A stretch of DNA of 64,000 nucleotides, taken from NCBI GenBank assembly GCA_041651535.1, contig JBAZIZ010000005.1, positions 26,188 through 90,187 on the forward strand. Direction: 5' to 3'. The translations under genes and the position numbers were made by a program. The stretch is from Patescibacteria group bacterium (GTDB lineage: Bacteria > Patescibacteriota > Patescibacteriia > Magasanikbacterales > UBA922). Below the pieces are notes generated by a model, which saw only the letters and a program-made list of their open reading frames with translations, searched no databases and had not been told where the DNA came from. Position 1 is the first letter of the stretch; every line of letters starts with the position of its first letter. Shown here piece by piece: positions 15,791 through 64,000 of this stretch.

Positions 15791-15811
15791 TTTATTCTCT
15801 TGAGTAAAAAT

Positions 15812-15870
15812 AGTTCTTATCTTAAAAATAAGAACAGATAAAACCAAGACCCGCTTTTAGCGGGTTTTTG
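15812..15870 (+). terminator. Tandem terminator hairpins after the surface-protein gene
   Basis: gttcttatcttaaaaataagaac hairpin, then agacccgcttttagcgggttttt hairpin with a T-run. Confidence 0.55.
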
Positions 15871-16033
15871 GTTGTTTAAAAAATAAAACCAAACTGACAA
15901 ATTTAAATAAACTAAAAAAAATATTAACAATCACTTTTGTCAACGAATTACCTAACATCTATAGGAATTACAAAATGACAAAATGTATGTGGAGTTTTTT
16001 AAAGACGTTTAAAAATAATTGAACAAAAAGATT

Positions 16034-16262
16034 AAACAGACAGACTAAAAAACAATTGCACTCTCACTTTGTCATCCCGACTAAGTCGGGATCCCTTAAA
16101 TAGTGAATTACCGCTATTGGAGACGAAGGATCCCTTAGACAATGAATTATCACTAAACACTTTTAATTCAATAATAAGTGGATTAAAAAGTCTAAGGGAT
16201 TCTTCACCTCCGACGTCACGTCGGAGGACTCAGAATGACAAAAAAGTAAGTTTTGACTATTT
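16034..16262. repeat. MITE-like inverted-repeat element (TTTGTCAT...ATCCCTTA // TAAGGGAT...ATGACAAA family), locus 1a
   Basis: Left arm ctttgtcat-cccgactaagtcggg-atcccttaaatagtgaattaccgcta (16066-16116). Inverted partner ctaagggattcttcacctccgacgtcacgtcggaggactcagaatgacaaaaaag (16190-16248). Internal palindromic hairpins. Confidence 0.6.
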
Positions 16263-16337
16263 TAATTTGTTAATTTTTTAGTGTTTAATTTTTGTTTTAA
16301 ATTTATTTTTAAAATAAAAAAACATCCTGATAAGTTT

Positions 16338-16512
16338 AAACAGACTAAAAAACAATCACACTCTCACTTTGTCATCCCGACTAAGTCGGGATCCCTTAAA
16401 TAGTGAATTACCGCTAATCATTTTAAAAATATTCAAACCTACACTTTGTCATGTTGAACCGAACGAAGTGAGAGTGAAGCATCCCTTAGACAATGAACTA
16501 TCGCTAATTATT
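16338..16512. repeat. Direct repeat copies of the same element family, locus 1b
   Basis: A 79-nt near-identical copy of 16034-16116 at 16338-16416. A second direct variant ctttgtcat-gttgaaccgaacgaagtgagagtgaagc-atcccttagacaatgaactatcgcta at 16443-16506. Confidence 0.6.
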
Positions 16513-16627
16513 TTTTAAACACTCAACAAAACATTTTCTTAAACAAACATTCAAAAAATATATTTATTGACTTTAATCATTTTTTTAGCTATAATTATCT
16601 AAATTTAGAAATAAAAAAAATTTTAGT

Positions 16628-18064
16628 ATGCAAAAACAAACAAAAATTCTCTGCACGCTTGGACCTTCCACTGAAAGTTTTGAAATTATAGAAAAATTAG
16701 TTAAATCAGGGATGAATGTTGCTCGACTGAATTTTTCTCATGGTACACATGAAAACCATAAAAAATTACTTGATACTGTTAGAGAAGTGGAAAAAAAGAC
16801 TGGTGAAACTGTGACAGTTTTACAAGATTTACAAGGACCAAAAATAAGAATTGGAAAATTGCCAGATGAAGGAATTGAATTAAAAGCTGGTGAAGAATAT
16901 CTTTTTTCTACTGATTTGAATAATAAAAAAGCTATCCCAATTGGTTTTGAAAGATTGCATGAATTTGTTTCTGTTGATGATGTTTTACTTATGGATGATG
17001 GAAAATTAGAAGTAAAAGTTTTGGAAGTTAATGGTAAAGATATAAAAACAAAAGCAGTTTTAAATGGAATTTTAAAATCAAACAAAGGAATAAATTTACC
17101 AAAAACTGATTTTTCCGAATTAGAAGTTTTGACAGCAAAAGATAAAGAAGACATTGTATTTGGCGTAAGAGAAAGAGTTGATATGATTGCAATTTCTTTT
17201 GTTATGAAAGCTAAAGATATTTTGGATCTAAAATTTTATATAAAAGAAATAGAAAAAAAATTAGGTATTACAGATTTACCAGAAATAAAAATAATTGCTA
17301 AAATAGAAAAACCAGAAGCAGTAAAAAATATTGATGAAATATTAGATGTGGTGGATGCTATTATGATTGCGAGAGGTGATTTGGGTGTAGAAATTCCAGC
17401 CGAAGATGTACCAATAGTTCAAAAAGAACTTATCAGCCGAGCTTTACATCATGCAAAACCAGTTATTGTTGCAACTCAGATGCTTGATTCTATGAGTGAA
17501 CGCCCACGTCCAACTAGAGCAGAAGTTTCTGATGTTTCTAACGCTGTTTTGGACGACACTGATGCTGTTATGCTTTCTAATGAAACTTCTACAGGAAAAT
17601 ATCCAGTTGAAGCTGTAGAAACAATGACAAAAATAATTTGTCGTGCAGAAAAATCACATCGAGAAGATTTGCCATTACAAGAACCAACTAATAAAACTCA
17701 CAAAATAGACGATACAATCAGTGGTTTATCAAAAATGGTTGCTCAAAAAGTTAATGCTAAATTAATTTTAGCTGCTTCTATATCTGGAGAAACCGCTAGA
17801 CTTATCAGTCGTTATCGTCCATCATTTCCAATTGTTGTGGCTACAAGTACTGATAGAGTAAAGAGACAATTAAATTTAGTTTGGGGAGTAAAACCTTTTA
17901 TTTTGGAACCATGCGATTCTATAGAAGAATTAGTAGAAAAATCAGTTGTAGAATTAAAAAGAAAAAAAATGGTAACTAGCGGAGATAAAATAATAGTAGT
18001 TGCTGGTGAACCTGTCGGAGAAGCTGGAAATGTAAATTTACTTGAAGTTAGAGAAATAGAATAA
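16628..18064 (+). CDS. pyk: Pyruvate kinase
   Basis: KILCTLGPSTES, MNVARLNFSHGTHENH, and the C-terminal allosteric domain. 478 aa. Confidence 0.9.
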   Translation: MQKQTKILCTLGPSTESFEIIEKLVKSGMNVARLNFSHGTHENHKKLLDTVREVEKKTGETVTVLQDLQGPKIRIGKLPDEGIELKAGEEYLFSTDLNNKKAIPIGFERLHEFVSVDDVLLMDDGKLEVKVLEVNGKDIKTKAVLNGILKSNKGINLPKTDFSELEVLTAKDKEDIVFGVRERVDMIAISFVMKAKDILDLKFYIKEIEKKLGITDLPEIKIIAKIEKPEAVKNIDEILDVVDAIMIARGDLGVEIPAEDVPIVQKELISRALHHAKPVIVATQMLDSMSERPRPTRAEVSDVSNAVLDDTDAVMLSNETSTGKYPVEAVETMTKIICRAEKSHREDLPLQEPTNKTHKIDDTISGLSKMVAQKVNAKLILAASISGETARLISRYRPSFPIVVATSTDRVKRQLNLVWGVKPFILEPCDSIEELVEKSVVELKRKKMVTSGDKIIVVAGEPVGEAGNVNLLEVREIE

Positions 18065-25390: not shown

Positions 25391-25472
25391 GAAGTCAAAA
25401 GATTTCGTTAAATAAGACAGTCTGAGATATGGCTGTTTTTATTTAAGATTTATGATTTTAGATTTAAGAGTT

Positions 25473-26020
25473 AAAACAAATTTTAAACAATGAATAAACA
25501 CTGGGAAATTTAACAAATTAAAATAAACAAAACTTACTCTTTTGTCATTTCGTAGCGAAGCGGAGAAATCCCTTAGACTTCTTAAAACATTATATTTTGT
25601 TTTAAAGAAAAATTAGTGGCAACTCACTGTTTAAGGGATGTTTCACCCTCACTTCGTTCGGTTCAACATGACAAAAGTGGTTGTGAATTTGTTTTTTAGC
25701 TAGGATATTTGTTTATGATTGGTTTATTTTATAAAACAAATTTTAAACAATGAATAAACACTGGGAAATTTAACAAATTAAAATAAACAAAACTTACCCT
25801 TTTGTCATTTCGTAGCGAAGCGGAGAAATCCCTTAGACTTCTTAAAACATTATATTTTGTTTTAAAGAAAAATTAGTGGCAACTCACTGTTTAAGGGATG
25901 TTTCACCCTCACTTCGTTCGGTTCAACATGACAAAAGTGGTTGTGAATTTGTTTTTTAGCTAGGATATTTGTTTATGATTGGTTTATTTTATAAAACAAA
26001 TTTTAAACAATGAATAAACA
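25473..26020. repeat. Tandem 260-bp repeat (2 full units plus a 28-bp partial), each unit carrying a MITE-like element
   Basis: Units 25473-25732 and 25733-25992 are near-identical. Each contains ttttgtcat-ttcgtagcgaagcggagaa-atcccttagac ... gtttaagggat-gtttcaccctcacttcgttcggttcaac-atgacaaaag (25540-25677 and 25800-25937). Confidence 0.8.
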
Positions 26021-26121
26021 CAAAAAGAATAGTAAATTAAAGTAGATAAAATTTATTTTTTCCTTTTTAATTTTTATTTTTGAATTTGTAAAGTTATCCA
26101 CTTTTTTTATTTTTGAATTAT

Positions 26122-31968: not shown

Positions 31969-32126
31969 TTTTGTCATACCGTAGCCCCGACGTATCGTCG
32001 GGGCGAAGGTATCCCTTAAATAGCGAATTATTACTATTTTTTCTTTAAAACAAAATATAATGTTTTTAAGATGTCTAAGGGATTTCTCCATCCCGACTTA
32101 TCGTCGGGATTACGAAATGACAAAAG
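31969..32126. repeat. MITE-like inverted-repeat element, locus 3
   Basis: ttttgtcat-accgtagccccgacgtatcgtcggggcgaaggt-atcccttaaatagcgaatta...tctaagggat-ttctccatcccgacttatcgtcgggattacgaa-atgacaaaag. Same termini and architecture as 25540-25677. Confidence 0.7.
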
Positions 32127-33413: not shown

Positions 33414-33565
33414 TATAAAAAAAAGTCCCGTCACTTTCTAGTGATAATGGTTTTTTCTCTGCTGAACATTCTGTTCGGCGGGAAAAACCAACTTTTTTAC
33501 AGGTCGGCAGCAATGTCGACCTTTTATTTTACAAAAAAACTCGCCTTATAGTGAGTTTGTTTTTT

Positions 33566-33643
33566 TTAAAGTTCCTCCTCCTAATAGGAGGAGGTCAGGA
33601 GGAGGTTATTTAAAAAAAATTTTTTAAAAAATAACCCCACCCT
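33566..33643. repeat. GGAGG/CCTCC-rich palindromic element, copy 1
   Basis: aaagttcctcctcctaataggaggaggtcaggaggaggttatttaaaaaaaattttttaaaaaataaccccaccct, with two nested hairpins. It lies between convergent genes. Confidence 0.6.
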
Positions 33644-33697
33644 AACCCCTGCCTATCGGCAGACAGGCTCCCCTAATAGGGGAGGGAAATCTTAAAT

Positions 33698-46552: not shown

Positions 46553-46639
46553 GGAGAGTTCGCATAGTGGTCGAGTGCGCTGCCTTGGAAAGGCAGTATA
46601 TCCGAAAGGGTATCGAGGGTTCGAATCCCTCATTCTCCG
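46553..46639 (+). tRNA. tRNA-Ser (anticodon GGA), class II
   Basis: Acceptor ggagagt/attctcc, anticodon stem-loop ctgcc-ttGGAaa-ggcag, long variable arm, T-loop ttcgaat. 87 nt. Confidence 0.8.
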
Positions 46640-46853
46640 CGAACGAAGTGAGCGAAAATGAGCGAGCAAATAGTTTTTCTCGCGTAGGGATGAGAACGCC
46701 GGAGTGATGTTTAGCGAGTTTGCTGACGAGCTAAACCGCGAGGTGGTGACTAGCCCGAGGTGGCGGAAGCCACTGAGAGGCGAAGTAGAATCCCTCATTC
46801 TCCGCAAAAATGTTTTTCTTTTTGTTGATAAATAGAATCCTTCATTCCTCGCC
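46623..46853 (+). repeat. Three direct copies of the tRNA-Ser(GGA) 3'-end 18-mer flanking a GC-rich 148-bp insert (att-like scars)
   Basis: gaatccctcattctccgc at 46623-46640 and 46788-46805. Degenerate agaatccttcattcctcgc at 46834-46852. The intervening 46641-46787 is about 55% GC and hairpin-rich. Confidence 0.55.
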
Positions 46854-49413: not shown

Positions 49414-49550
49414 AAAATAAATTATGGAGAGCCCCGCCGAGTCGGGGTAAACCCCGTCAAGGCGGGGTAAAGTGGCTGGGCTTATCCCGCCTCGGTGGGT
49501 TGAAGTTGAAAGTGAAAAATTGTTTGTATTTTTAAATAAATTATGGAGAG
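49414..49550 (+). repeat. 17-bp direct repeat (aataaattatggagag) duplicating the tRNA-Ser(CGA) upstream region and 5' end, flanking a GC-rich hairpin-rich 103-bp segment
   Basis: Copies at 49414-49430 and 49534-49550. Between them is ccccgccgagtcggggtaaaccccgtcaaggcggggtaaagtggctgggcttatcccgcctcggtggg, which is not tRNA-like. Confidence 0.5.
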
Positions 49551-50781: not shown

Positions 50782-53463
50782 ATGAAAAAAGAAGAGGCAA
50801 AAATACAGATAACAAAACTCATTGAAAAGTATCAACGAGTTGTTGAGGCTGGGAAATTAAAAGATTACAACGAGGCCCAAACAAGAAATGAATTCATTGA
50901 GCCTTTTTTTGAATTCCTTGGATGGGACATGAGAAATTTAACTAATGACAATGAGGTTACCACCGAAGAAAATGTATCTGGAGGTAGAGTCGACTTAGCT
51001 TTTAGACTTAATAATATACCAACATTTTTCTTGGAAGCAAAAGCGATGAAGGTTGATTTGGATGAGTGGAAATGGGCAGAACAAGCTATAAATTACAGTT
51101 GGAACAAGAATGTAACTTGGGCGGTTTTAACTGACTTTGAAAGTATAAAAATTTTTAATGCTGAGATGCCACCAAAAAGCATTTCTCAGAATCTTTTTAT
51201 AGAAATAAAATGCCAAGATTATATTAATCGTTTTGATCAAATTTGGCTTTTATCAAAAGAGAGTTTTGAACAGAAACTCTTAGATAGAGAAGCTCAAAAA
51301 TGGGGTAAGCTTACGCAAAGAAAACAGGTTGGAGAAAAACTTTTTGAAGATTTAATGACTTGGCGCATTTTATTGACTAACGATTTCAAAAAACAGAATA
51401 ATTTATCAGGTGAAGAATTGGATGAAGGAGTACAAAGAATTCTTGATCGTCTCATTTTTATACGAACAGCCGAAGATAGAAAAATTGAACCTAATATACT
51501 CATTGGCATTCCTCGAGGTGGAAGATCAGAGCAGTATAAACAATTAATAAAAGTATTTCGTGATTTTGATGATGGTTTTAACTCTAAACTTTTTGCTCCG
51601 CATTATTGTGAGGAATGGAAAATAAGCGACAAGGTGGTTAGTGAAGTTATTAACGGACTTTATGAAACTAAAGATGGTTATCGATATGATTTTTCTGTAA
51701 TTTCCGCAGATGTATTAGGGGGAATTTATGAACAATATTTAAGTTTTGTTCAGGTTCGTAAAGGCGAAGACAAAACAAAATCAAAGAGAAAATCTCAAGG
51801 GATTTATTATACGCCGAAACATGTTGTGGAGTTTATTATAAAGGAAACTTTAGGGGAAGTTTTAAAGAAAACTAAACCAAAAGATTTTTCAAAAATTAGA
51901 ATTTTAGATCCTGCTTGCGGGTCAGGCTCATTTTTAGGAGCTGCATATGATAAGATTTTGGATACACTAACAAAACAAAGTCCGCAAACTTCACTTTTTG
52001 CTAAATTTAACATCTTAAAAGACAATATTTTTGGAGTTGATCTTGATGTTCAGGCTGTTGAAATAGCTCAACTTAATTTATTGTTAAAAGTGTTATCGCA
52101 AAAAACCAAGCTACCAACATTGCAACATAATTTAGCTTCTGGTAATTCACTTGTTTCTGGAGAAAATGAAAAAATCGAACAATATTTTGGTTTAAATTAT
52201 CGAGAACAAAAACCATTTAACTTTGAGCTGGAATTTAATAACGTTTTTGGTCAAGGTGGCTTTGATGTCGTAATAGGAAATCCGCCATATGTAAGAAATC
52301 GTGAATTGCCTGGTAATCTAAAATCTTTTTACGATAATAACTTCGTTACCGCATCTGGCCAATATGATATTTATCAGTTATTTTTTGAAAAGGCTATAAC
52401 GCTACTTAAAGAAAATGGGTATCTTGGTTTTATTACCTCGAATAAATATGCAATTGCTAATTATGGCGAGAAACTTCGGGAATATATTTTAAAGAATTGT
52501 GAAATTATAAAAATTATTGATGTATCCAATGTTGATGTATTTAAGGATGCTGCAACATATCCCTATATAATAATTCTTCAGAAAAAGAAAAAAATAAACA
52601 AAAAACATAAAATAAAAATAAAGAAGGTCGCAGATCTATCGGAATTATCAGACGGAAAATATGAAGAAATTGAACAGGTTGCGTTTGAAAATAATAAAGG
52701 GAAAACGTTTACTTTAAAAACTTTTCCGACTTTTTTTGATAAAATTGAAAAAGTATCAACAAAACTTGGTGAAATTGCAACGATTAAAGAAACTATACAC
52801 ACTGGAAATGTTAGAAACAAATTAATTGTAGATGAAAAAATTGATAATAACTGTAAGAAGTTGCTGGCTGGCAAAGATTGTCATAGATATAGTTTTGAGT
52901 GGCGAGGAAAATATATTCGTTATGATAAAACTTTAATAGATAAAACCAAGGGAGAATACGGCAACCTTTGTGATTCGAAATATTTTGATAATCCAAAGAT
53001 TCTTTTAAGAGAAATTGCTAACAAAATAGAGTGTTGTTTTGATGAAAATAAATATTATACGCTTAATAAAGTTTATGCAGTGTTGTTAAATGAAAATAAT
53101 TATTCATATCTATACTTATTGGCGCTATTAAACTCAAAATTGCTAACATATTATTTTAGAGAAAAGTTCGAAGAGACTCATGTTAGGGGTGGATATTTGC
53201 AATTTAAAAAAGTTTATACATCTCAAATTCCGATAGCCATAATCAATTTCAAAAATAAAGAAGAAAATAATATCTACAACAAACTTGTCAAGTTGTCGGA
53301 GCAGATGGTAAATCTTCATAAGGAGTTGCAATCTGTGGCTGTTAATACCGACAAATATAACTACTTGAAAGTCGAAATAGAAAAAGTTGATAAAGAAATA
53401 GATGAAGTAGTCTATAAGATTTATGGAATTACTGACGACGAGAAACGTGTAATTGAAAAATAA
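50782..53463 (+). CDS. Type IIG restriction-modification enzyme (MmeI-like: N-terminal PD-(D/E)xK nuclease, gamma-class N6-adenine methyltransferase, C-terminal target-recognition domain)
   Basis: Nuclease motif VDLAF...FLEAKAM. MTase motif I ILDPACGSGSFLGAA and motif IV GNPPYV. 893 aa, the size of MmeI-family enzymes. Confidence 0.75.
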   Translation: MKKEEAKIQITKLIEKYQRVVEAGKLKDYNEAQTRNEFIEPFFEFLGWDMRNLTNDNEVTTEENVSGGRVDLAFRLNNIPTFFLEAKAMKVDLDEWKWAEQAINYSWNKNVTWAVLTDFESIKIFNAEMPPKSISQNLFIEIKCQDYINRFDQIWLLSKESFEQKLLDREAQKWGKLTQRKQVGEKLFEDLMTWRILLTNDFKKQNNLSGEELDEGVQRILDRLIFIRTAEDRKIEPNILIGIPRGGRSEQYKQLIKVFRDFDDGFNSKLFAPHYCEEWKISDKVVSEVINGLYETKDGYRYDFSVISADVLGGIYEQYLSFVQVRKGEDKTKSKRKSQGIYYTPKHVVEFIIKETLGEVLKKTKPKDFSKIRILDPACGSGSFLGAAYDKILDTLTKQSPQTSLFAKFNILKDNIFGVDLDVQAVEIAQLNLLLKVLSQKTKLPTLQHNLASGNSLVSGENEKIEQYFGLNYREQKPFNFELEFNNVFGQGGFDVVIGNPPYVRNRELPGNLKSFYDNNFVTASGQYDIYQLFFEKAITLLKENGYLGFITSNKYAIANYGEKLREYILKNCEIIKIIDVSNVDVFKDAATYPYIIILQKKKKINKKHKIKIKKVADLSELSDGKYEEIEQVAFENNKGKTFTLKTFPTFFDKIEKVSTKLGEIATIKETIHTGNVRNKLIVDEKIDNNCKKLLAGKDCHRYSFEWRGKYIRYDKTLIDKTKGEYGNLCDSKYFDNPKILLREIANKIECCFDENKYYTLNKVYAVLLNENNYSYLYLLALLNSKLLTYYFREKFEETHVRGGYLQFKKVYTSQIPIAIINFKNKEENNIYNKLVKLSEQMVNLHKELQSVAVNTDKYNYLKVEIEKVDKEIDEVVYKIYGITDDEKRVIEK

Positions 53464-54350
53464 TGAACATTTTATCTCTTATTGCTAGTGAGTTGAATGG
53501 TAGAGAAATGGCTGTTTTGGTTTGGCTTTTGCTTTTTATTTGTTATGGCGTTTTTCAAAAAAATTTTCGTAGTTCATTTTTAGCTGTTTTAAAATCGTTT
53601 TTTCAAATTAAAATAATTGCCGTTTTCGTAGCAATGTTGTTTTATGTTTCCTTAATTCTGTGGGGCTTATATATTATTAAAATCTGGGATTTATATTTAG
53701 TAAAAGATACTATATTTTGGCTATTTGGTTCAGCCTTTATTCTTCTTTTAAATAGCAATAAAGCTATTCAGAATGATAACCATTTCAAAAATGTTTTAAA
53801 AGACAACATTAGATTAGTGATCTTTCTTGAATTTATTCTCACATTTTACTCCTTTGGTTTTTTAGTTGAAATGATCTTTGTTCCAATAATGTTTATTATT
53901 GTGTCTATGGGTATTTTAGCAGATATTAAAACAGAATATTCACAAATTAAAAAAATTATTGGTTCATTCTTGTCTATAATTACTATACTCCTTATTGTAT
54001 TTTTTGTTTACAAAGTAATTGATGATTATCAAAGCTTCTTATCATTAAATAATTTACGTTCATTTTTCATCCCGTTAATTCTTTCCTTTCTGTTTATGCC
54101 ATTTTTATATTTGTTTGCTGTAGTTATGGCTTATGATGATTTTTTTAGTCGATTAAAATTATTTTTAAGGAGTGACCAGATAATATACCAATATACAAAA
54201 AAACAAGTTATTAGATTATGCTTTTTTAATTTAAGCAAGCTTAATAAATTTTCTAGAAAAAATTCATCGGAGTTACAAAAAATCAAAAATAAGAGTGATG
54301 TAGAAAATATGATTTATCAATTTAAGATCGAATATTCGGATAGAATATAA
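53463..54350 (+). CDS. Hypothetical multi-pass membrane protein translationally coupled to the RM gene
   Basis: ATG overlaps the RM stop by 1 nt. 295 aa with about 6 TM helices. Confidence 0.4.
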   Translation: MNILSLIASELNGREMAVLVWLLLFICYGVFQKNFRSSFLAVLKSFFQIKIIAVFVAMLFYVSLILWGLYIIKIWDLYLVKDTIFWLFGSAFILLLNSNKAIQNDNHFKNVLKDNIRLVIFLEFILTFYSFGFLVEMIFVPIMFIIVSMGILADIKTEYSQIKKIIGSFLSIITILLIVFFVYKVIDDYQSFLSLNNLRSFFIPLILSFLFMPFLYLFAVVMAYDDFFSRLKLFLRSDQIIYQYTKKQVIRLCFFNLSKLNKFSRKNSSELQKIKNKSDVENMIYQFKIEYSDRI

Positions 54351-54372
54351 GATATTGTATAGCATTTAATTT

Positions 54373-55710
54373 TTATTCTTCTAACAGTGTCAACCTCTTT
54401 TCTTTTAGTACAATCCTACTTCTTAAATTAGCCAGCAGTTCTCGTTTCTCAATAGCACTGCCTTCCTTGAGGACATATTTGGCGTAGTCTTTCATATCCA
54501 CATCTTGTCTTTTGGATTTAATCGGCTTCTCGCCGAAGACTATGCCTTGAAATTTATTAAACCTCTCAACTTCCAGCTCTAACTTATTAAGCATACCCAG
54601 TTCGTTAATACTGACCCTATCTATTATCCTCAGCAGTTCAGCAATCAATTCTTCTTCTCTTATGTATTTATTTTTGCAGAATCTGTCTTTGCCCCGTGAG
54701 CATCCATAATAAATATAATGAGCAGTTGTACCGTCTTTTAGTTGTTTGTATTTGCTTTCCGCTGATATACCTGATCCGCAGAGTCCGCAAGTTATTAATT
54801 TAGTGAAGGCAAACTCTTTGCTTTCTCTTTGAATATTATCTCTCTTTAACTGCGCCTTAGCTTTCTCGAATAGTTCTTGAGTAATAATTGGCTTATGCTT
54901 TCCTTGATACCAATTACCACTGCCAGTCGGTCGTTCAAAGACGCCGTAGTAGAAAGTGTTATCTAACACTCTGTATATTCCGCTTAGAGTTAGAGGCTTA
55001 TTACCTCTGGTATAGAAGTTTAATTCATGGGTTAGCCAGTGATATAATCTTCGTCCGCTGTATTTTTCATAAGCAACTTTTTCAAACATCTGTTTAATAA
55101 CAGGCGCTCGTTTAGGATCAATAATCACTTGGCATTTTTTGTCATTGCGGTTTTGGTTTAAGTATCCCAGAGGTGCTACTCCAACCCATAACCCCATTTC
55201 CGCTCTAGTCCTTAATCCTCGTCTAACATTAACGCCCCTGTTGTCGTTTTCTAACTTAGCTTGCGATCCTAGAATCATCAGTAAGAATTTTTCATTAGGG
55301 TTATTAGAAAACTTCTGGCCGTAGGTTCTAATTTCTTTTAACACCCCTTGATCCATTAAATCGACAATAGCGCCAAGGTCGCCAGCGTTTCTACTGATAC
55401 GATCAGGCGCCCAAGTAAGGATGGCATTGAATTTGCCTTGCCTGATGTCGCCGATCAGCTCATTAAAAACCTGGCGTTGACCAGTCTCTTTGGCGCTATG
55501 GGATTCACGCTTAATTTCGACCACATTCAAGTTTTCTTTGACCGCCAAATCCAACATCTCTTTGACTTGGCTGTCTATTGAAAGAACTTGCCGTTCTTCC
55601 GATTCCGTCGACTTTCTGGCATAGAGGCAGTATTTCGGCGGTTCCTCGGGCTTTTGATTTGTTGTTGGAGCTTGTAGCCCGCCCAGCCCCGGGTAATTTA
55701 CGTTTATCAT
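54373..55710 (-). CDS. Large serine recombinase (integrase)
   Basis: Resolvase catalytic domain with YARKSTESEE (nucleophilic Ser), recombinase domain, zinc-ribbon CGLCG...YYGC, coiled-coil C-terminus. 445 aa. Confidence 0.8.
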   Translation of the reverse strand: MINVNYPGLGGLQAPTTNQKPEEPPKYCLYARKSTESEERQVLSIDSQVKEMLDLAVKENLNVVEIKRESHSAKETGQRQVFNELIGDIRQGKFNAILTWAPDRISRNAGDLGAIVDLMDQGVLKEIRTYGQKFSNNPNEKFLLMILGSQAKLENDNRGVNVRRGLRTRAEMGLWVGVAPLGYLNQNRNDKKCQVIIDPKRAPVIKQMFEKVAYEKYSGRRLYHWLTHELNFYTRGNKPLTLSGIYRVLDNTFYYGVFERPTGSGNWYQGKHKPIITQELFEKAKAQLKRDNIQRESKEFAFTKLITCGLCGSGISAESKYKQLKDGTTAHYIYYGCSRGKDRFCKNKYIREEELIAELLRIIDRVSINELGMLNKLELEVERFNKFQGIVFGEKPIKSKRQDVDMKDYAKYVLKEGSAIEKRELLANLRSRIVLKEKRLTLLEE

Positions 55711-55795
55711 ATACTACAATGAATGACGCAAAGAACCCAGGGCGTCTAGACCACTAGCTGTTGGTAACTAAAGCCCTTAAAAGTCTTAAGATTCC

Positions 55796-57298
55796 TTATA
55801 TATAATCCCAATCATATTTATTACCTTGCTGTCCAGTAATTCTAATCGCTCGTCCTTCATTAGGATCTCTACCTATCCTTGCTTCACCGCTTAAGTCATC
55901 AATTACTCCTAATATGGCATAAACAAAGGCATCAGCTAAATCATCATGTTTCTCGGCACCCATGGCTACTATTTGCCTGATTAAAATATCGCTACCTTCT
56001 TTAGGGAAGAGTATAGTGCCATTTTTGATCAAATGAGTAATTGATCTAAGTCTAGCAATCTTACTTAAACCGCCAGGCTTCATTTCCTTTACTGGGATGT
56101 TTTTGCTTTTTAAGTGTTGGGACAAGGCTGTTTGATAATTAACACTCTCAATACATAGTTTAGTCGGACTTGATGATAAAGCATTTGATCTTATCATACA
56201 AGCTTCAACTTGTGCTGGAAAATCTAGCCTTTCGTTTAACATGTCTGGCAACACATATATTCTTCTTGATTCTCCGTACCCATAAACCTTTACAGATACA
56301 AACGCCGTAAAATCGCCTTCTTCAGAAATCGCTAAATCTACTCCAGTCAATATCCTTTTGCAATCTTCGTATCCAGGAATTGAATCATAATAATGTATCC
56401 AGTCTGGTTTAACTACCCAGTCTTCGCCTGGAATTATTTTTAACATAAACTCTCTTTGATAAGCCGCCTCATTGGCGGTTTTCTGGTGTTCTAGTTCTAT
56501 ATCGTCCATACTTCGATATTTACCAGGCCAAATGATTTCTTCATTTTCACCAAGAAGAGGATATTGTTTATATATACCATTCATTTTATTATTTTCAATC
56601 ATTTTTCTAATGCGCATCAGGAGAGAATCTTCATGTAGCAAGTTGCCGACAAATATGAATTGAGCGCCTTTGTCTCCGATAGACATTACTTCGCTCATTA
56701 CCCAGTTAAATGTTTTGTCTCGCATCTCTTGAGTTTTAACTGAATGCAAATCTTCTACATCATCTAGAATTACTAAGTCGGGACGATGAGAACCGTGTTT
56801 CATTCCTCTAATGCTTTGGTCAATCGAGGCGGCAGTGATCCTGGCGTTATATTTAGGAATAACCAAAGAAAAGGAGCGCCATTCGTCACTTTCTTCCTGA
56901 AATGGTCCAAGGTCATTTCTCAATAGCTCATTTCGCTCAAGTTCTTCCTTTATGTTTTTTAGGTGTTGTTTGGCCTGGGGCATTGTTTGTGCGAGTATCA
57001 AGATGAACTTTCTTTGTTTTTTGCCAAGTATCGACCAAATAGGCATTGATGTCGTCATGATCGTACTTTTACCACTACCTCTAAAAGCAACAAATACAGC
57101 CGTTGTCCAATTGTCACGTTCTGTAATATCAAACATTTCATAATGGAAAGGAGCAACCTCATAAGTTACGTGTTGAGCTAAGTAAATAAGAAAAAACCAA
57201 AGATGACTATTTTTAGTTACCTCACGTCGGACAACCCGACGTTTAATAATTTCTGGCGTAATACCTAAAATACTGTTTGTCTTATTTAAAGTGTTCAT
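55796..57298 (-). CDS. Phage terminase large subunit
   Basis: Walker A FRGSGKST, Walker B DLVILDDVED, C-terminal RNase-H-like nuclease region. 500 aa. Confidence 0.7.
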   Translation of the reverse strand: MNTLNKTNSILGITPEIIKRRVVRREVTKNSHLWFFLIYLAQHVTYEVAPFHYEMFDITERDNWTTAVFVAFRGSGKSTIMTTSMPIWSILGKKQRKFILILAQTMPQAKQHLKNIKEELERNELLRNDLGPFQEESDEWRSFSLVIPKYNARITAASIDQSIRGMKHGSHRPDLVILDDVEDLHSVKTQEMRDKTFNWVMSEVMSIGDKGAQFIFVGNLLHEDSLLMRIRKMIENNKMNGIYKQYPLLGENEEIIWPGKYRSMDDIELEHQKTANEAAYQREFMLKIIPGEDWVVKPDWIHYYDSIPGYEDCKRILTGVDLAISEEGDFTAFVSVKVYGYGESRRIYVLPDMLNERLDFPAQVEACMIRSNALSSSPTKLCIESVNYQTALSQHLKSKNIPVKEMKPGGLSKIARLRSITHLIKNGTILFPKEGSDILIRQIVAMGAEKHDDLADAFVYAILGVIDDLSGEARIGRDPNEGRAIRITGQQGNKYDWDYI

Positions 57299-57690
57299 AC
57301 GTTTTCTTTTGGATTGTTTTTAAAGGAAGCCAGCTCAAGAGCTTTTTTAACGAGTTCTTCTTGTTCTGGAGTCAGTTGATCACTGACACTTAGATTGCCA
57401 CTCAGCTCTATCTTATTGGCATAAGCCTTATGATGGTGCTTGAGCCAAAACATTACCGCTGTAATGTTTCTTTCTTTAATAGCTTGGAGTAGTTGACTTT
57501 CGGCAATATCAGTGATTAATCCGCTTCCTTCAGTGACTGCCTCGTCGACTTCGAGAGCAAAGACTGGATCTTCCTTCTTCCAGCGGTACAGCGAGGCTCG
57601 GGATATTCCCGAGCGCTCGCAGGCCAGCTGAATGATTGGAGTTTTACGCAATATCTCCAAAAAGCGCTTTCTGGCTTCTTTGCTAATCAT
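57295..57690 (-). CDS. Phage terminase small subunit (HTH type)
   Basis: HTH GISRASLYRWKKEDPVF followed by ...AVMFWLKHHHKAYANKIEL, typical of P27-type TerS. It overlaps the TerL start by 4 nt. Confidence 0.6.
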   Translation of the reverse strand: MISKEARKRFLEILRKTPIIQLACERSGISRASLYRWKKEDPVFALEVDEAVTEGSGLITDIAESQLLQAIKERNITAVMFWLKHHHKAYANKIELSGNLSVSDQLTPEQEELVKKALELASFKNNPKENV

Positions 57691-57697
57691 ATAAGTC

Positions 57698-59026
57698 CTA
57701 ATTAATTTTTTTAGCTTTAAGCCCAGTTAACTTTTCCCAACGCTTGCGGATTACTTCGGCATAGACAGGAGATTTTTCCATAATAAAACAGCGCCTGCCA
57801 AGTTTAGTTGAGGCGATAAGAGTCGATCCACTACCACCGAACGGCTCAACAACGATATCATTTCTTTTGGTTAAGACTTTGATATATGGAATAAGGATCT
57901 CAATTGGCTTAGTGCCAAAGATAATTCCTTGGCCTGATGATTTCTCATCAGAAGCATTAAACTCAATGAAGTCGGTTGGACAATATTTTTTGCCCTTCTC
58001 ATATGATTCCCAATTAGGCCTACCAGAAGTAGCATAAAGAGCCGCCATAAATTCATTCTGCAGTAGTTCATCGTCTTCTGGCTCATCATTCATCTTGAAA
58101 TCAGGCGTTGATCCTAGCATGGCAAAATCATACTTGTTAAAAAACTTATATTTAGAAGCAAACCCTTGGACTCGGTTAGGTAAATGCCAAATAATGAGAT
58201 TCCGTATCTTCCAGCGCTTAGCTACTTCTGCCCACATGATCGGCAGATTTTTCCAACATTCATATGACAGGATGGAAAAATCTTCTTTAGCAACTTCTTG
58301 GATATTATCCATCCATAGCTCAACAAAGTTATCGGGTAAACTATCAGTTTCTAAGTATTTACGATCACGCTTCAAACCGAAGCCTTCTGTCGGTTGCCCG
58401 TTTTTCTTCTTGCCATGCAAGTAATCCAAAATATATGGTTCATCGGTACAGCACATATCCGCCTTTTCTCCATCCATGAGCTTGAGCACGTCGACTTCAA
58501 TAGTACTATCACCGCACATTAGTCTTGATCCGTTTAGGTCATAGACATCGCCTTTCTGAATCTCAATATTTTTAATATCCAGCTTTTCCAATTCTTTCTT
58601 CAGGTCGAATACTTCAGGAACATCTTCGATATCAAAAATGTCATCCAACTCCTCGGAAGAGAAGCCGACATCTTTAAGGAAGTTTTCATCAAATTTAGCT
58701 AGCAGTTCAAAATCAAAATCACCAGTATTTTTGTTCAGACGGATATTGAGTTCTTTTTCTTTCTCAATATCGGAAATATGAACATAGACGACTGGTACTT
58801 CTTGATAGTTTAGTTCTTTAAGAACTTCCAAGCGGAAGTGTCCACCTATGAGAATATTTTTTCGTTCATCGGCACTATTGGCGATGAGCGGATCTACACA
58901 ACCATATTTCTTAATGGATTCTTTGAGCTGATCCATTTGTTCTTGGCTGTGCTTGCGAGGATTGTATTCGCTCGCTTTCAAGTCCATGATCGGGACTTGG
59001 ACGATTTGCAACGTGTTGCTTGTCAT
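57698..59026 (-). CDS. ParB-like nuclease domain fused to a DNA N4/N6 methyltransferase
   Basis: N-terminal ParB/Srx motif (KASEYNPRKHS...DPLIAN). C-terminal MTase with TDEPY (DPPY-like) and VVEPFGGSGSTLIAS motif I. Confidence 0.7.
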   Translation of the reverse strand: MTSNTLQIVQVPIMDLKASEYNPRKHSQEQMDQLKESIKKYGCVDPLIANSADERKNILIGGHFRLEVLKELNYQEVPVVYVHISDIEKEKELNIRLNKNTGDFDFELLAKFDENFLKDVGFSSEELDDIFDIEDVPEVFDLKKELEKLDIKNIEIQKGDVYDLNGSRLMCGDSTIEVDVLKLMDGEKADMCCTDEPYILDYLHGKKKNGQPTEGFGLKRDRKYLETDSLPDNFVELWMDNIQEVAKEDFSILSYECWKNLPIMWAEVAKRWKIRNLIIWHLPNRVQGFASKYKFFNKYDFAMLGSTPDFKMNDEPEDDELLQNEFMAALYATSGRPNWESYEKGKKYCPTDFIEFNASDEKSSGQGIIFGTKPIEILIPYIKVLTKRNDIVVEPFGGSGSTLIASTKLGRRCFIMEKSPVYAEVIRKRWEKLTGLKAKKIN

Positions 59027-59418
59027 ACATTTTAAAGTTAGTTAATTAGCTTGGCGTTAATAAAAAAGACGCCCGTCTTATCGACTGCGTCTTATACATA
59101 AAAACGTATAGACAAGTTGTTGGTAAAAAATAACCAATAACTTTCAGTCAAAAAGACTAAAACGGACAATAGTGTTTGTCCTGACAGTGGTTATTTTTTT
59201 ATTAGCATTTCGCTAATTGCCAACTTTCAAGAACTATTTTAGCACTTACTGAAATAGCGGTCAAATCTTGGAAGTCGATTTTTTGGCTAAAGTAAGGGGT
59301 AATTTGTCAAGACGGTAAATGATTTTGCTCATTTTTTCTTTATATTTTAGCCATTTTCTATCTTTACATTATGTAAAAAATAGTGTAAAGTAGTGTTAAG
59401 TTAAGATTATTATATTTT

Positions 59419-59610
59419 ATGACCAAAAATAGCAAAGATGAGATAATAACTTTAAGCCAGGCTTGTGAATTATTACACTGCCACCCCAACACTCTGCGCA
59501 AGTGGGATAACAAGGGATTTTTAAAAGCGATAAGGTTCGGCGTGCGTGGTGATAGAAGATATCACAGGGTTGATATCGAAAAATTAATTTTGGAAATGAA
59601 GAATAAATAA
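59419..59610 (+). CDS. Excisionase-like/MerR-type HTH protein (candidate recombination directionality factor)
   Basis: ITLSQACELLHCHPNTLRKWDNKGFLKAIRFGVRGDRRYHRVDIEKL fits the HTH_17/excisionase pattern. Divergent from the recombinase-terminase operon. Confidence 0.5.
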   Translation: MTKNSKDEIITLSQACELLHCHPNTLRKWDNKGFLKAIRFGVRGDRRYHRVDIEKLILEMKNK

Positions 59611-59654
59611 ATGCAATGTTAAAATAATAAGAATGTAGACAGTTAAGTTTTAAT

Positions 59655-60824
59655 ATGCCTCAGATAACAAAAAAACAACTAAGAGAAAAAGTGGTTACTG
59701 TTTTAAAAAAACAGGGATATAAAGTTGGCGACCACGGTTTTTCGTTAAAAGATAATACGAGAGAAACAAAAAGAGATGTTCATTCTTTAGCCAAGAAAGA
59801 AAGAATAATTAAAAGCGAAAAGTTTATTTTGAATAATATTGATTTTATAAGCGCTAATATGGTTAGTGGCGCTGATTTAGACATAGAAAAAATAGAGCCA
59901 AAAATTATTGAAGTTAAAGAAGGTTCAAAATACGAAAAATTATTTCGATGGTGGAATTTGGTTTGGTGGAGCTTGCCCTATGAACACGCCTATGGTCGAC
60001 AGATGAGATTTGTTGTTTGGGACAAATATCATAAAGCGCCAATAGGGTTGATTGGTTTGCAGAGTCCGATTTTAAGTTGGAGCGTAAGAGATGAACATCT
60101 TGGTATAAATAAACAAGATAGGGATTATTGGGTCAATCAGTCTATGAGTGCACAAAGATTGGGAGCTTTACCACCTTATAACTATATTCTCGGCGGTAAA
60201 TTAGTGGCATCGTTAATGACAACGGATATCATTAGAAAGAAATTTGAGAAAAAGTATTCTGGCAAGAAAACTATTTTAAAAAATAGAAAATTACCATCAA
60301 AATTGCTTTTTATAACAACCACAGGAGCATATGGTAAAAGCAGTGTTTATAATAGATTAAAATATAATGGTGATGTTATTTCTAAATTTATTGGTTACAC
60401 TAAAGGTAGTGGCTCCTTTCATATCCCAAATACATTATTTGAAGACTTTATTAAATATTTGAAAAAAAGAAATTACGATGTTAAAAGAGGTTATGGTAGT
60501 GGCCCTTCAAGAAAAATGAGACTTATAAATCAAGCTATGGATTGTTTAGGAATATCAAATGGATCTAATCATGGAATACAGAGAGCTGTTTATTTGTTTC
60601 CGATGGCTAAAAATTTAGAAGATGTGATTCAAAAAGGTAAAAAACCAGCTTGGGTAAACAGGTCAATTAATGAAATAACTGAATACTGGAAAGAACGATG
60701 GATAATGCCAAGAATATCACAAAGAGAAAATTATAAAGATTTTTCCGCTAAACGTTTCATCGATGAAACTCGATTAGAAGTAGAATCTTTCTGTAAAAAT
60801 AAGGGGAAAATAAAGAAAAAATAA
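59655..60824 (+). CDS. Unknown protein, first gene of a coupled operon with NurA-like and HerA-like genes
   Basis: 389 aa. Basic N-terminus, Trp-rich core (FRWWNLVWWSLPYEHAYGRQMRFVVWDKYH). No motif I can assign. Stop is 2 nt before the next ATG. Confidence 0.5.
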   Translation: MPQITKKQLREKVVTVLKKQGYKVGDHGFSLKDNTRETKRDVHSLAKKERIIKSEKFILNNIDFISANMVSGADLDIEKIEPKIIEVKEGSKYEKLFRWWNLVWWSLPYEHAYGRQMRFVVWDKYHKAPIGLIGLQSPILSWSVRDEHLGINKQDRDYWVNQSMSAQRLGALPPYNYILGGKLVASLMTTDIIRKKFEKKYSGKKTILKNRKLPSKLLFITTTGAYGKSSVYNRLKYNGDVISKFIGYTKGSGSFHIPNTLFEDFIKYLKKRNYDVKRGYGSGPSRKMRLINQAMDCLGISNGSNHGIQRAVYLFPMAKNLEDVIQKGKKPAWVNRSINEITEYWKERWIMPRISQRENYKDFSAKRFIDETRLEVESFCKNKGKIKKK

Positions 60825-60825
60825 T

Positions 60826-62034
60826 ATGGACGTTAATAGCCAAGACAAAAAAAATTATGCCTATCTGCCAGATGATTTATTAGTTCAAATACTGGACAAA
60901 GTCCCAGACACTGTTGGAAAGATGAATAGAATGTTTGATACTCAGGATGAGCCAATAAAAGAAGGGATAGAAGATCTAAGACGCAAAAATTTAATTAATA
61001 AATTAACGAGCTTGGATTATTGTTATTCTCTTATTGCTGTAGATGGTAGTAATATTGTAGAAAAAATGACTGGTACTGATATATTGTTGGCTATGGGTGT
61101 TGGCGTTGAAGGATTATCAGAAGACAAAAACACTGAATGGGGAGAAAAAAATAATCAGTATTATAGTTGGCAAACAGTTCTTCCTCACGGAGAGGCAAAT
61201 GCTAGATTAATTCAGGGAATTATGTTTTTGATGGAATCAAGCGTATTGGCTCAATCTAATCATGAAATAAGAATAATGGATGGCAGTCATTTAAATCCAA
61301 TTATCAAAATAAATAGCATGCTTAGTGCCAGTGATGAAAACGCCGGCAAAGAGTATTGTGAAGCTTTAAAGGAATTTTTAAAAGAAAAATATAATAAGAT
61401 TATACCAGACATACCAGACATAGTATCTTCTGCCTTAAATAACGATCATATTATTGCAATGGTAAAATATAGCTCCTCTAGAGATATGCTAGATAGTCAT
61501 CTAAAAGAACACAAGGATATTAGATTGGATGATAAAACATTCTTTTCTTTGGGGCTTAACGAAGATGAATATACTACGCCATTACCTGTTGGGCAAAGTA
61601 AGGATGAGCGGCAGACATGGGGAGATCTTCATATGAGCTGTAACCTTGTTGCAATTGAGGAAAAAGATGCTTTGAATAAAGCGTTGAAGCAGTCATTAGA
61701 CCCTATAAAAACCAGAGACTCCAAGGGTCAAGAGAAAGAGTCTATCATTTATTTCACTTATTATAAACCATATCAAGATGGACCAGCTTACAGAATTGAA
61801 ATAAAAAAAACATTAGCACAAGATAAAGCCAGGCTAGAAAAATATTTACTTAGTATTAAAAAACAAATAATATTTCCAGAAATTAGAGAACCATATCCGC
61901 AATACTTAGTTGATTTAATGGCTAAAAGTATTGCAATGGGATTATTTTCAATACAAGAAGCAATTAGACTATCGCCTGATTTGAAGATAGATAGAGGTAA
62001 ATTTAATTTATTATTTAATTATAGAACTAAATAA
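60826..62034 (+). CDS. NurA-like nuclease-domain protein
   Basis: LDYCYSLIAVDGSNIV places a DGS Asp motif near aa 70, as in the NurA 5'-3' nuclease family. 402 aa. Directly precedes a HerA-like ATPase. Confidence 0.45.
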   Translation: MDVNSQDKKNYAYLPDDLLVQILDKVPDTVGKMNRMFDTQDEPIKEGIEDLRRKNLINKLTSLDYCYSLIAVDGSNIVEKMTGTDILLAMGVGVEGLSEDKNTEWGEKNNQYYSWQTVLPHGEANARLIQGIMFLMESSVLAQSNHEIRIMDGSHLNPIIKINSMLSASDENAGKEYCEALKEFLKEKYNKIIPDIPDIVSSALNNDHIIAMVKYSSSRDMLDSHLKEHKDIRLDDKTFFSLGLNEDEYTTPLPVGQSKDERQTWGDLHMSCNLVAIEEKDALNKALKQSLDPIKTRDSKGQEKESIIYFTYYKPYQDGPAYRIEIKKTLAQDKARLEKYLLSIKKQIIFPEIREPYPQYLVDLMAKSIAMGLFSIQEAIRLSPDLKIDRGKFNLLFNYRTK

Positions 62035-62042
62035 ATAAAAAT

Positions 62043-63878: not shown

Positions 63879-63885
63879 CTATTTA

Positions 63886-64000
63886 TGGGGACTGAAATGG
63901 GCGTTAAAGAATATCAACAATATTGTAAAGACAAACTTTTGAGTTTATATGATTCAGTTGATGTTGAATGGAATCCATTTAAAAAATTTAATGTAGGCAA
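63886..64000 (+). CDS. Hypothetical protein, 5' fragment (continues beyond window); likely fourth gene of the same operon
   Basis: ATG 8 nt after the HerA-like stop. MGTEMGVKEYQQYCKDKLLSLYDSVDVEWNPFKKFNVGK... Confidence 0.3.

Follow-up and report, generated by a model that had tools for sequence, protein, structure and literature searches.

Which kind of element occupies the intergenic regions of the 64-kb stretch of Patescibacteria DNA analysed here (64,000 nucleotides of contig JBAZIZ010000005.1, 29.9% GC, hereafter the window), in which short repeats with variable hairpins recur in direct and inverted order? A preliminary description read these repeats as miniature inverted-repeat transposable elements (MITEs), or as elements related to repetitive extragenic palindromes (REP), that might also act as RNA structures. 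At three intergenic loci we find ten oriented units, in each of which (T)TTGTCAT is followed by a variable hairpin and then by ATCCCTTA, and we consider it probable that they are Ssn-related motifs (SRM), akin to the Neisseria repeat NTS, representing a subtype of the known Ssn/SRM system found in the Candidate Phyla Radiation (CPR). The nuclease of that system, SsnA, acts on single-stranded DNA (ssDNA), and the gene for a homologue lies on another contig of the assembly from which the window derives.

Oriented hairpin units in the window

Both boxes of the motif are over-represented in the window, with 18 copies of TTTGTCAT over the two strands, against 6.5 +/- 2.5 in shuffled sequences, and 12 copies of ATCCCTTA, against 2.3 +/- 1.4. 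Joined as TTTGTCAT-N15-33-ATCCCTTA, they make up ten units, six on the plus strand (at 16068, 16368, 16445, 25541, 25801 and 31970) and four on the minus strand (ending at 16242, 25675, 25935 and 32124), every one of which is intergenic, with none inside an open reading frame (ORF). This frequency is far above chance. Furthermore, all ten share a frame consisting of GTC, a palindrome bounded by AT...AT, and a following C, and a scan of the window with a generalised form of the motif returned 12 matches, against 3.5 in shuffles. Repeat motifs are therefore present at the three intergenic loci where they were originally noticed, in excess over shuffles, and the suggestion that they belong to a dispersed, intergenic and hairpin-forming family of REP-like kind is supported.

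Convergent pairs of units form composites, three of which, at the second and third loci (Table 1), are homologous from end to end, the third being reversed relative to the first two, and these differ mainly in whether GC-rich hairpin extensions are present in their arms. The internal hairpins do vary, as first reported, in that the differences between composites sit in hairpin inserts; what had been taken for cargo, however, is the stem of the motif itself, the closing pairs of which covary. Likewise, TTTTGTCAT and ATGACAAAAG cannot be the termini of an element, since similarity between copies reaches about 25-30 nt further out. The stretch 16034-16512, originally treated as one element, is actually a cluster of three solo units and one rearranged composite, with a remnant at 15935-15983. 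In the first solo unit of this cluster (16040-16116), GTC at 16071-16073 is followed by the palindrome ATCCCGAC-taa-GTCGGGAT and then by C and CCTTA, placing ATCCCTTA at 16091-16098, and as ssDNA the unit is predicted to fold with an 8-bp stem (z -3.8). The rearranged composite (16117-16246) runs from a 3' piece of a unit, tggagacgaagg, through ATCCCTTA (16130-16137), a 55-nt AT-rich core and TAAGGGAT (16193-16200), to a complete minus-strand unit ending in ATGACAAAAAAG, with a predicted fold of -11.6 kcal/mol (z -4.0). Both the terminator of the upstream gene (15846-15868) and the promoter of pyruvate kinase (16567-16595) lie outside the units of this locus. The reported duplication of the 25540 locus at 25800 is borne out, taking the form of a 260-bp tandem repeat (25472-26021, 2.1 copies, 99% identical) that contains the whole composite together with its flanks, upstream of hrcA, and that may be either a recent duplication or an assembly artefact. 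Folded as ssDNA, the first copy of this composite reaches -22.5 kcal/mol (z -4.5), and the two units of the composite at 31969-32126 yield z scores of -6.2 and -3.5. Overall, window units with GC-rich stems have ssDNA folds with z between -3.5 and -6.2, and four of seven window units are significant in this respect.

The hairpin family and its GIY-YIG partner

Homologous units are found well beyond the window. An initial scan of genome contigs with the pattern TTTGTCATN{10,40}ATCCCTTA, which specifies 16 bases, was too loose, and most of the at least 120 loci recovered are chance matches; the true members among them (L006, L061, L064, L092, L108 and L118) come, except for L108 (labelled Anaerolineae), from metagenome-assembled genomes (MAGs) of CPR bacteria (Komeilibacteria, Peribacteria, Paceibacterota) or from an unclassified bacterium. 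A stricter pattern of 24 bases, applied to JGI metagenomes, recovered at least 120 loci in 102 distinct groups, totalling 729 kb and ranging from 21 to 61% GC, while two scans of viral contigs with 24-base patterns gave one chance match each. About 100 composites among the listed metagenome loci follow a single plan, in which a 5' arm of (T/C)TGTCAT, YCY-GA(S)CGA...GAG(Y)GGA-RGR and A-TCCCTTA leads into a loop that varies from 9 to 45 nt, after which TAAGGGA-T and the complementary arm follow, with ATGACAA last.

The frame of GTC, AT...AT and C recurs in 210 distinct units from the listed CPR loci, and comparison of these units resolves the structure of the hairpin. Closing pairs 1-3, beside AT...AT, are Watson-Crick in 87-89% of cases, with T-A and C-G replacing one another; positions 4 and 5 hold a tandem G.A/A.G that is conserved; and at pair 6, C-G, G-C and A-T substitute for each other. 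The hairpin is under selection, its structure being kept across copies. By contrast with these covarying positions, the outer box TTGTCAT and the inner box TCCCTTA are invariant and do not covary, and represent one oriented motif that occurs twice, in inverted order. No family-wide conservation is apparent in these units upstream of the three T's.

A GIY-YIG gene is the recurrent companion of the units. In locus L123, from a relative whose pyruvate kinase is 79% identical to that of the window, a gene encoding 100 aa lies between two units at the orthologous site upstream of pyruvate kinase, and the proximal unit of this pair is orthologous to window unit 16368. A search of the at least 120 metagenome loci with the L123 protein revealed eight further GIY-YIG homologues of 86-119 aa (those of L222 and L234 being identical in sequence), all but one of which lie within about 130 nt of a unit, and in an unbiased clustering of all ORFs at most 200 nt from units at the listed loci, GIY-YIG proteins form the largest family. 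In L126 (2360-2726) and L142 (4185-4575), the loop of a composite is occupied precisely by the ORF, whose ATG lies 4-8 nt past ATCCCTTA and whose TAA stop codon is supplied by the TAAGGGAT box, so that the gene fits exactly between two inverted recognition units. The association also holds in the reverse direction, given that three more homologues obtained by protein search (L251, L252 from Gracilibacteria and L253 from WS5) have GTCAT...ATCCCTTA units within about 60 nt, as established by scan for L252 and L253 and by inspection of the sequence for L251, so that, with L123, units are present beside all four of the GIY-YIG homologues checked.

The partner proteins, of 86-100 aa, match Pfam GIY-YIG with E values of 1e-16 to 1e-18, and NCBIfam offers no dedicated family for them. 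Identity to a Neisseria gonorrhoeae ORF set among 8 NTS copies (L246) is 49% for the L126 protein and, at E 4e-22, 40% for the homologue from the window's own assembly (P0121, discussed below). Judged by their sequences, the CPR proteins probably belong with SsnA. Consequently, the search for an autonomous partner that was originally recommended has a mixed outcome: an ORF-bearing version with the same arms exists in L251, L123, L126 and L142, yet the partner is not a transposase, and the notion of a MITE mobilised by a transposase gives way to a gene of about 90-100 aa for a putative GIY-YIG ssDNA nuclease of the Ssn family. An Ssn-type system and its repeats are abundant in the CPR. In the WS5 MAG, a gene for a ComEA-like helix-hairpin-helix protein (HHH_3; L253, 4387-4824) lies directly 3' of the ssnA homologue, a single case that presents a possible link to DNA uptake.

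The pyruvate kinase of the window (MFA5211531.1) is deposited as 'MAG: Patescibacteria group bacterium', and its next relatives, at 60-65% identity, are from Candidatus Magasanikbacteria. The homologue P0121 (MFA5211146.1) shares 87% identity with the L123 protein, and its gene lies on contig k141_2647415 (locus L251) of the same assembly as the window (ERZ27247363; window contig k141_1926505). Given this common assembly, and accession numbers for the two proteins that are only 385 apart, both contigs very probably belong to the same MAG. In L251, two convergent units enclose ssnA to form a cassette, which is followed by further units. A block of roughly 460 nt in the window (15965-16425) is a paralogue of the 3' flank of this ssnA gene, and more than 100 consecutive nucleotides match without a difference; identity is 86% outside hairpin inserts and 59% inside them. 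Among these inserts, a 20-nt GC hairpin, cctgcctgccggtaggcagg, stands at the TAAGGGAT box in L251 (about 1730-1755) and is missing from the window copy (16190-16200). Moreover, the ends of the L251 cassette align with both ends of the composite at 31969-32126 (74% over 122 nt and 78% over 93 nt), in alignments that take in interior sequence as well as about 25 nt outside the GTCAT boxes. Because both cassette ends match, the window composites look like ORF-less internal-deletion derivatives of an ssnA cassette. Similarly, the first locus looks like a former cassette site that lacks its gene, and the remnant at 15935-15983 is probably the scar of a cassette without its interior.

Relation to the Ssn system and alternative explanations

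A full-text literature search with a related string, GTCATTCCCGC, led to the work of Chenal et al. (Nat Commun 2025; PMC11893778), in which the Neisseria repeat NTS is given as CGTCATTCCCGCGMAVGCGGGAATCYRG and its relatives in other bacteria are named SRM. SsnA is a single-domain GIY-YIG protein of 94 aa that binds NTS/SRM as ssDNA hairpins and cuts a few nucleotides upstream, without acting on double-stranded DNA, RNA or the reverse strand (PMC11893778). Cleavage is governed by GTC, the three bases before the palindrome, and binding by the palindrome, with the C that follows it being the most important base (PMC11893778). ssnA genes are typically flanked by the motif, and in N. meningitidis the system reduces transformation by NTS-bearing DNA (PMC11893778). 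The likeness to the units described here is extensive. The same oriented GTC, AT...AT palindrome and C characterise the NTS/SRM of Neisseria, Wolbachia, Rhizorhabdus and other bacteria, which are accompanied by SsnA of the Ssn family (GIY-YIG, cd10448); NTS/SRM are likewise multicopy and intergenic and frequently form convergent pairs (about 60 nt separates plus- and minus-strand NTS at gonococcal locus L246); copies of the motif also flank the nuclease gene (NTS-ssnA-NTS); and SsnA, like the putative CPR partner, is a single-domain GIY-YIG protein of about 90-100 aa, the CPR homologues being 40-49% identical to the gonococcal one.

There are nonetheless differences, and several points weigh against assigning the window units to this system. 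The published SRM pattern, HGTCWYN(0-2)YYVSBRHN(0-5)WNVSBRGN(0-2)RNCYNB, matches no site in the window and none of 208 distinct CPR-type units, and membership therefore rests on anatomy and linkage rather than on the operational definition. Searches by tblastn and hidden Markov model detected no GIY-YIG or ssnA gene in the window, nor in the adjoining parts of the contig (9.3 kb on the upstream side and 3.2 kb on the downstream side); that the two contigs come from a single genome is very probable rather than proven; for units with mini-hairpin arms, nearest-neighbour DNA parameters predict no fold (z +0.5 to -0.4); and the nearest solved structures in the PDB are UPF0213 proteins (E 1e-5). 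Minimal arms with C-GAA-G or C-GTA-G resemble the very stable d(GCGNAGC) DNA mini-hairpins, a resemblance that serves as a lead only. With regard to the pattern, the same regular expression recovers 8 sites around the gonococcal gene as a positive control, and it permits only a loop of 0-5 nt and a stem of 6-7 bp of fixed composition. CPR units, by contrast, have a short stem (AT and YCY) and a tandem G.A/A.G, then either a C-GNA-G mini-hairpin or a long GC-rich extension, giving inserts of 9-61 nt, and unlike SRM their 3' box is lengthened to ATCCCTTA, which pairs with that of the inverted partner. Since the pattern finds gonococcal sites and none of the 208 units, the CPR form is a divergent subtype that the published census would have missed. 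Its host here is a member of the CPR/Patescibacteria of 30% GC, and the main text of PMC11893778 makes no mention of either name; our search for literature on Ssn after 2025 found none beyond that paper.

Under the Ssn hypothesis, the units would be oriented sites, each reading (T)TT-GTC / AT-stem...stem-AT / C-CCTTA, that form a hairpin once the DNA becomes single-stranded, as may happen during DNA uptake, replication or repair. SsnA, encoded on the other contig of the assembly in a cassette between convergent units, would bind this hairpin and nick a few bases upstream, as its Neisseria counterpart does. With units arranged in inverted pairs, either strand would, on exposure, present one site in the cleavable orientation. 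The composites, in which two convergent units enclose a short AT-rich core, would be ORF-less derivatives of the cassette, and the cluster upstream of pyruvate kinase the remains of a former one. By analogy, we infer that the organism's own protein cuts the units of the window, and that the system may act on incoming or otherwise exposed ssDNA. Motif anatomy, covariation, linkage to ssnA, and the paralogy and orthology of the loci come from the present analysis, and ssDNA-specific, orientation-specific cleavage and the restriction of transforming DNA from the literature.

An alternative explanation is that the ssnA cassette is an active mobile element that produces no target duplication, employing its GIY-YIG nuclease as a transposase or homing nuclease, with the composites as MITE-like derivatives spread in trans. 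ORF-bearing and ORF-less forms with both ends in common would be expected of such an element, as would the presence of a cassette in L123 at a site where the orthologous region of the window has none, the roughly 460-nt block shared, with more than 100 identical nucleotides, by two loci of probably one genome, and the same unit sequence across genomes of 21-61% GC. The authors of PMC11893778 drew an analogy to insertion sequences and to REP sequences with their associated tyrosine transposases (RAYTs), raising mobility without settling it. However, the same observations follow from duplication, deletion and gene conversion, no pair of empty and filled sites with clean boundaries was found, similarity extends beyond the motifs so that ends are not defined, and single-domain GIY-YIG proteins have no known strand-transfer or ligation activity. 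Furthermore, the proximal units have kept their place between genomes with pyruvate kinases only 79% identical, and so are old rather than recent insertions. On balance we regard this explanation as unlikely. We are equally doubtful of a stronger version, whereby the CPR cassette would be a selfish element, still active and mechanistically new, with ssDNA hairpin ends and a GIY-YIG nuclease, neither HUH nor DDE chemistry and no target duplication, its ORF-less composites being MITE-like passengers whose insertion or retention is favoured beside heat-shock genes, and the differing hairpin inserts of near-identical paralogues being footprints of cleavage and repair. The mobility of the elements is unproven.

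Other readings fare considerably worse against the evidence. Classical MITEs, as short deletion derivatives of DDE-type insertion sequences that move by cut-and-paste through terminal inverted repeats (TTTTGTCAT/ATGACAAAA), would have left target-site duplications, and among 86 distinct composites none of 2-8 nt exists at any of the offsets 0-4: direct repeats are not in excess for k=4-8, and their counts for k=2-3 are only marginal. The family does resemble MITEs in its inverted-repeat architecture, small size (74-171 nt, median 103), intergenic location and multiple copies, and in having ORF-bearing and ORF-less forms with both ends in common. Yet the recurrent neighbour of the units is a GIY-YIG gene, no transposase family being found among the neighbours, solo units are common and conserved, the supposed inverted repeats hold covarying internal hairpins, and similarity passes the supposed ends. 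The classical MITE reading is largely refuted, and we judge it very improbable. A role as structured RNA (small RNAs, leaders, thermosensors or terminators, with the inverted pairs forming a four-way junction in the transcript) also appears highly unlikely, although the whole composite folds well and copies adjoin heat-shock genes. Only tRNAs pass the Rfam gathering threshold in the window, with nothing credible at E <= 10 in 15800-16650, and copies occur in both orientations relative to co-directional genes; the stems TTGTCAT/ATGACAA and TCCCTTA/TAAGGGA are invariant instead of covarying, one arm would appear in a transcript in its purine-rich sense form and the other as its complement, the actual terminator and promoter of the first locus are not part of the units, and SsnA ignores RNA (PMC11893778).

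Two further families invite comparison. REP sequences and the bacterial interspersed mosaic elements (BIMEs) that they form, maintained by RAYTs (Y1 transposases related to IS200/IS605), are likewise clustered, mosaic ssDNA hairpin repeats that lack target duplications and flank a small nuclease gene of their own, and some arms in the window carry GTAG directly 5' of a GC-rich palindrome, such as accGTAGccccgacg at 31980. The enzyme here, however, has a GIY-YIG rather than an HUH/Y1 fold; no RAYT was found near the units, nor any Y1-transposase-like family among ORFs at most 200 nt away, where the top cluster is GIY-YIG; and the conserved GTC...C flanks fit NTS and not REP, which leaves hardly any probability for this reading. 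The Neisseria intergenic mosaic elements (NIMEs) with their dRS3 repeats resemble the window loci in being intergenic mosaics whose variable segments are enclosed by short hairpin repeats, and about half of dRS3 copies are NTS (PMC11893778). In contrast, dRS3 is defined only as ATTCCC-N8-GGGAAT, and the arrays in the window are much smaller, with cores homologous to the ends of the ssnA cassette.

Surrounding features and implications

The repeat features of the window are collected in Table 1.

Table 1 Repeat units, composites and remnants identified in the window
Feature	Position	Strand	Remarks
Degenerate remnant TTTTGTCAA-N31-ATGACAAAA	15935-15983	none	Right half opens the block paralogous to the L251 ssnA 3' flank
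Solo SRM-type unit with lead	16040-16116	+	77-nt direct repeat D1
Composite with rearranged left arm	16117-16246	none	Left arm intact in the L251 paralogue
Solo unit	16340-16416	+	97% identical to 16040-16116; orthologue in L123 at about 2016-2070
Solo unit, purine-rich arm gttgaaccgaACGAAGTgagagtgaagc (C-GAA-G mini-hairpin type)	16425-16512	+	Decayed counterpart at the same place in L123
Composite of two inverted units and a 56-nt core	25540-25677	none	Between the transketolase gene and hrcA
Second copy of the 25540 composite	25800-25937	none	Within tandem duplication 25472-26021
Composite in opposite orientation	31969-32126	none	Downstream of dnaJ and the UPF0029 gene

The window composites bracket a heat-shock block (hrcA-grpE-dnaK-dnaJ-UPF0029), with 25540-25937 on its upstream side and 31969-32126 on its downstream side. 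Among the 102 distinct listed loci, we observed four distinct dnaK neighbourhoods (L130, L161, L173, L230) and four of groESL (L134, L162, L175, L223), against 0-1 for each of the control genes encoding pyruvate kinase, FtsZ, PheT and transketolase, a comparison based on a small sample and made without a formal null model. At these metagenome loci, composites often lie directly upstream of dnaK or groES, or in the gap that separates groES from groEL. Two other candidate motifs were considered and dropped, namely hammerhead or kink-turn-like RNA motifs in the purine-rich arms, these arms being inverted DNA copies, and a Bacteroidota promoter motif (TAnnTTTG), the host being a Patescibacteria bacterium.

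Additional GC-rich palindromes and insertions occur elsewhere in the window. A GC-rich insert of about 147 nt, opening with the 12-mer GAACGAAGTGAG, comes after the tRNA-Ser(GGA) gene (46553-46640). This 12-mer does recur at 46641, beside the tRNA gene, as had been noticed, but the insert carries neither GTCAT nor ATCCC flanks and has no relative in any fetched locus, and a link to the units is therefore unproven. An 18-nt direct repeat of the tRNA 3' end, GAATCCCTCATTCTCCGC, flanks the insert at 46623-46640 and 46788-46805, with a decayed third copy at 46835-46853, and the insert looks like an integration scar or a small insertion. Similarly, a GC-rich insert of about 100 nt precedes tRNA-Ser(CGA), which starts at 49545, and is flanked by a 17-nt direct repeat, aaataaattatggagag (49415-49431 and 49534-49550), that contains the first bases of the tRNA. 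A second class of small GC-rich palindrome occupies 33560-33695 (cctcctcctaataggaggagg, cctgcctatcggcagacagg and ctcccctaataggggag), and the hairpin insert of L251 described above is similar to it. Downstream of the tRNA-Ser genes, positions 50782-64000 (L248) form an island with mobile-element and defence features, encoding an MmeI-like methyltransferase/restriction protein, a large serine recombinase (54373-55710, minus strand), a ParB-like methyltransferase, and DruA, NurA and DUF87-type proteins.

The Ssn system was first described only in 2025. As the CPR form is wholly missed by the published search pattern, current counts of the distribution of Ssn/SRM are probably underestimates. Cassettes in which the ORF fills the loop, together with their ORF-less derivatives, offer useful material on the question of mobility. 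For annotation, the GC-rich hairpins of AT-rich CPR genomes should not be recorded as small ORFs or as novel RNAs. Finally, CPR cells are thought to rely heavily on DNA uptake, and an ssDNA nuclease with landing sites in the genome could matter in such cells.

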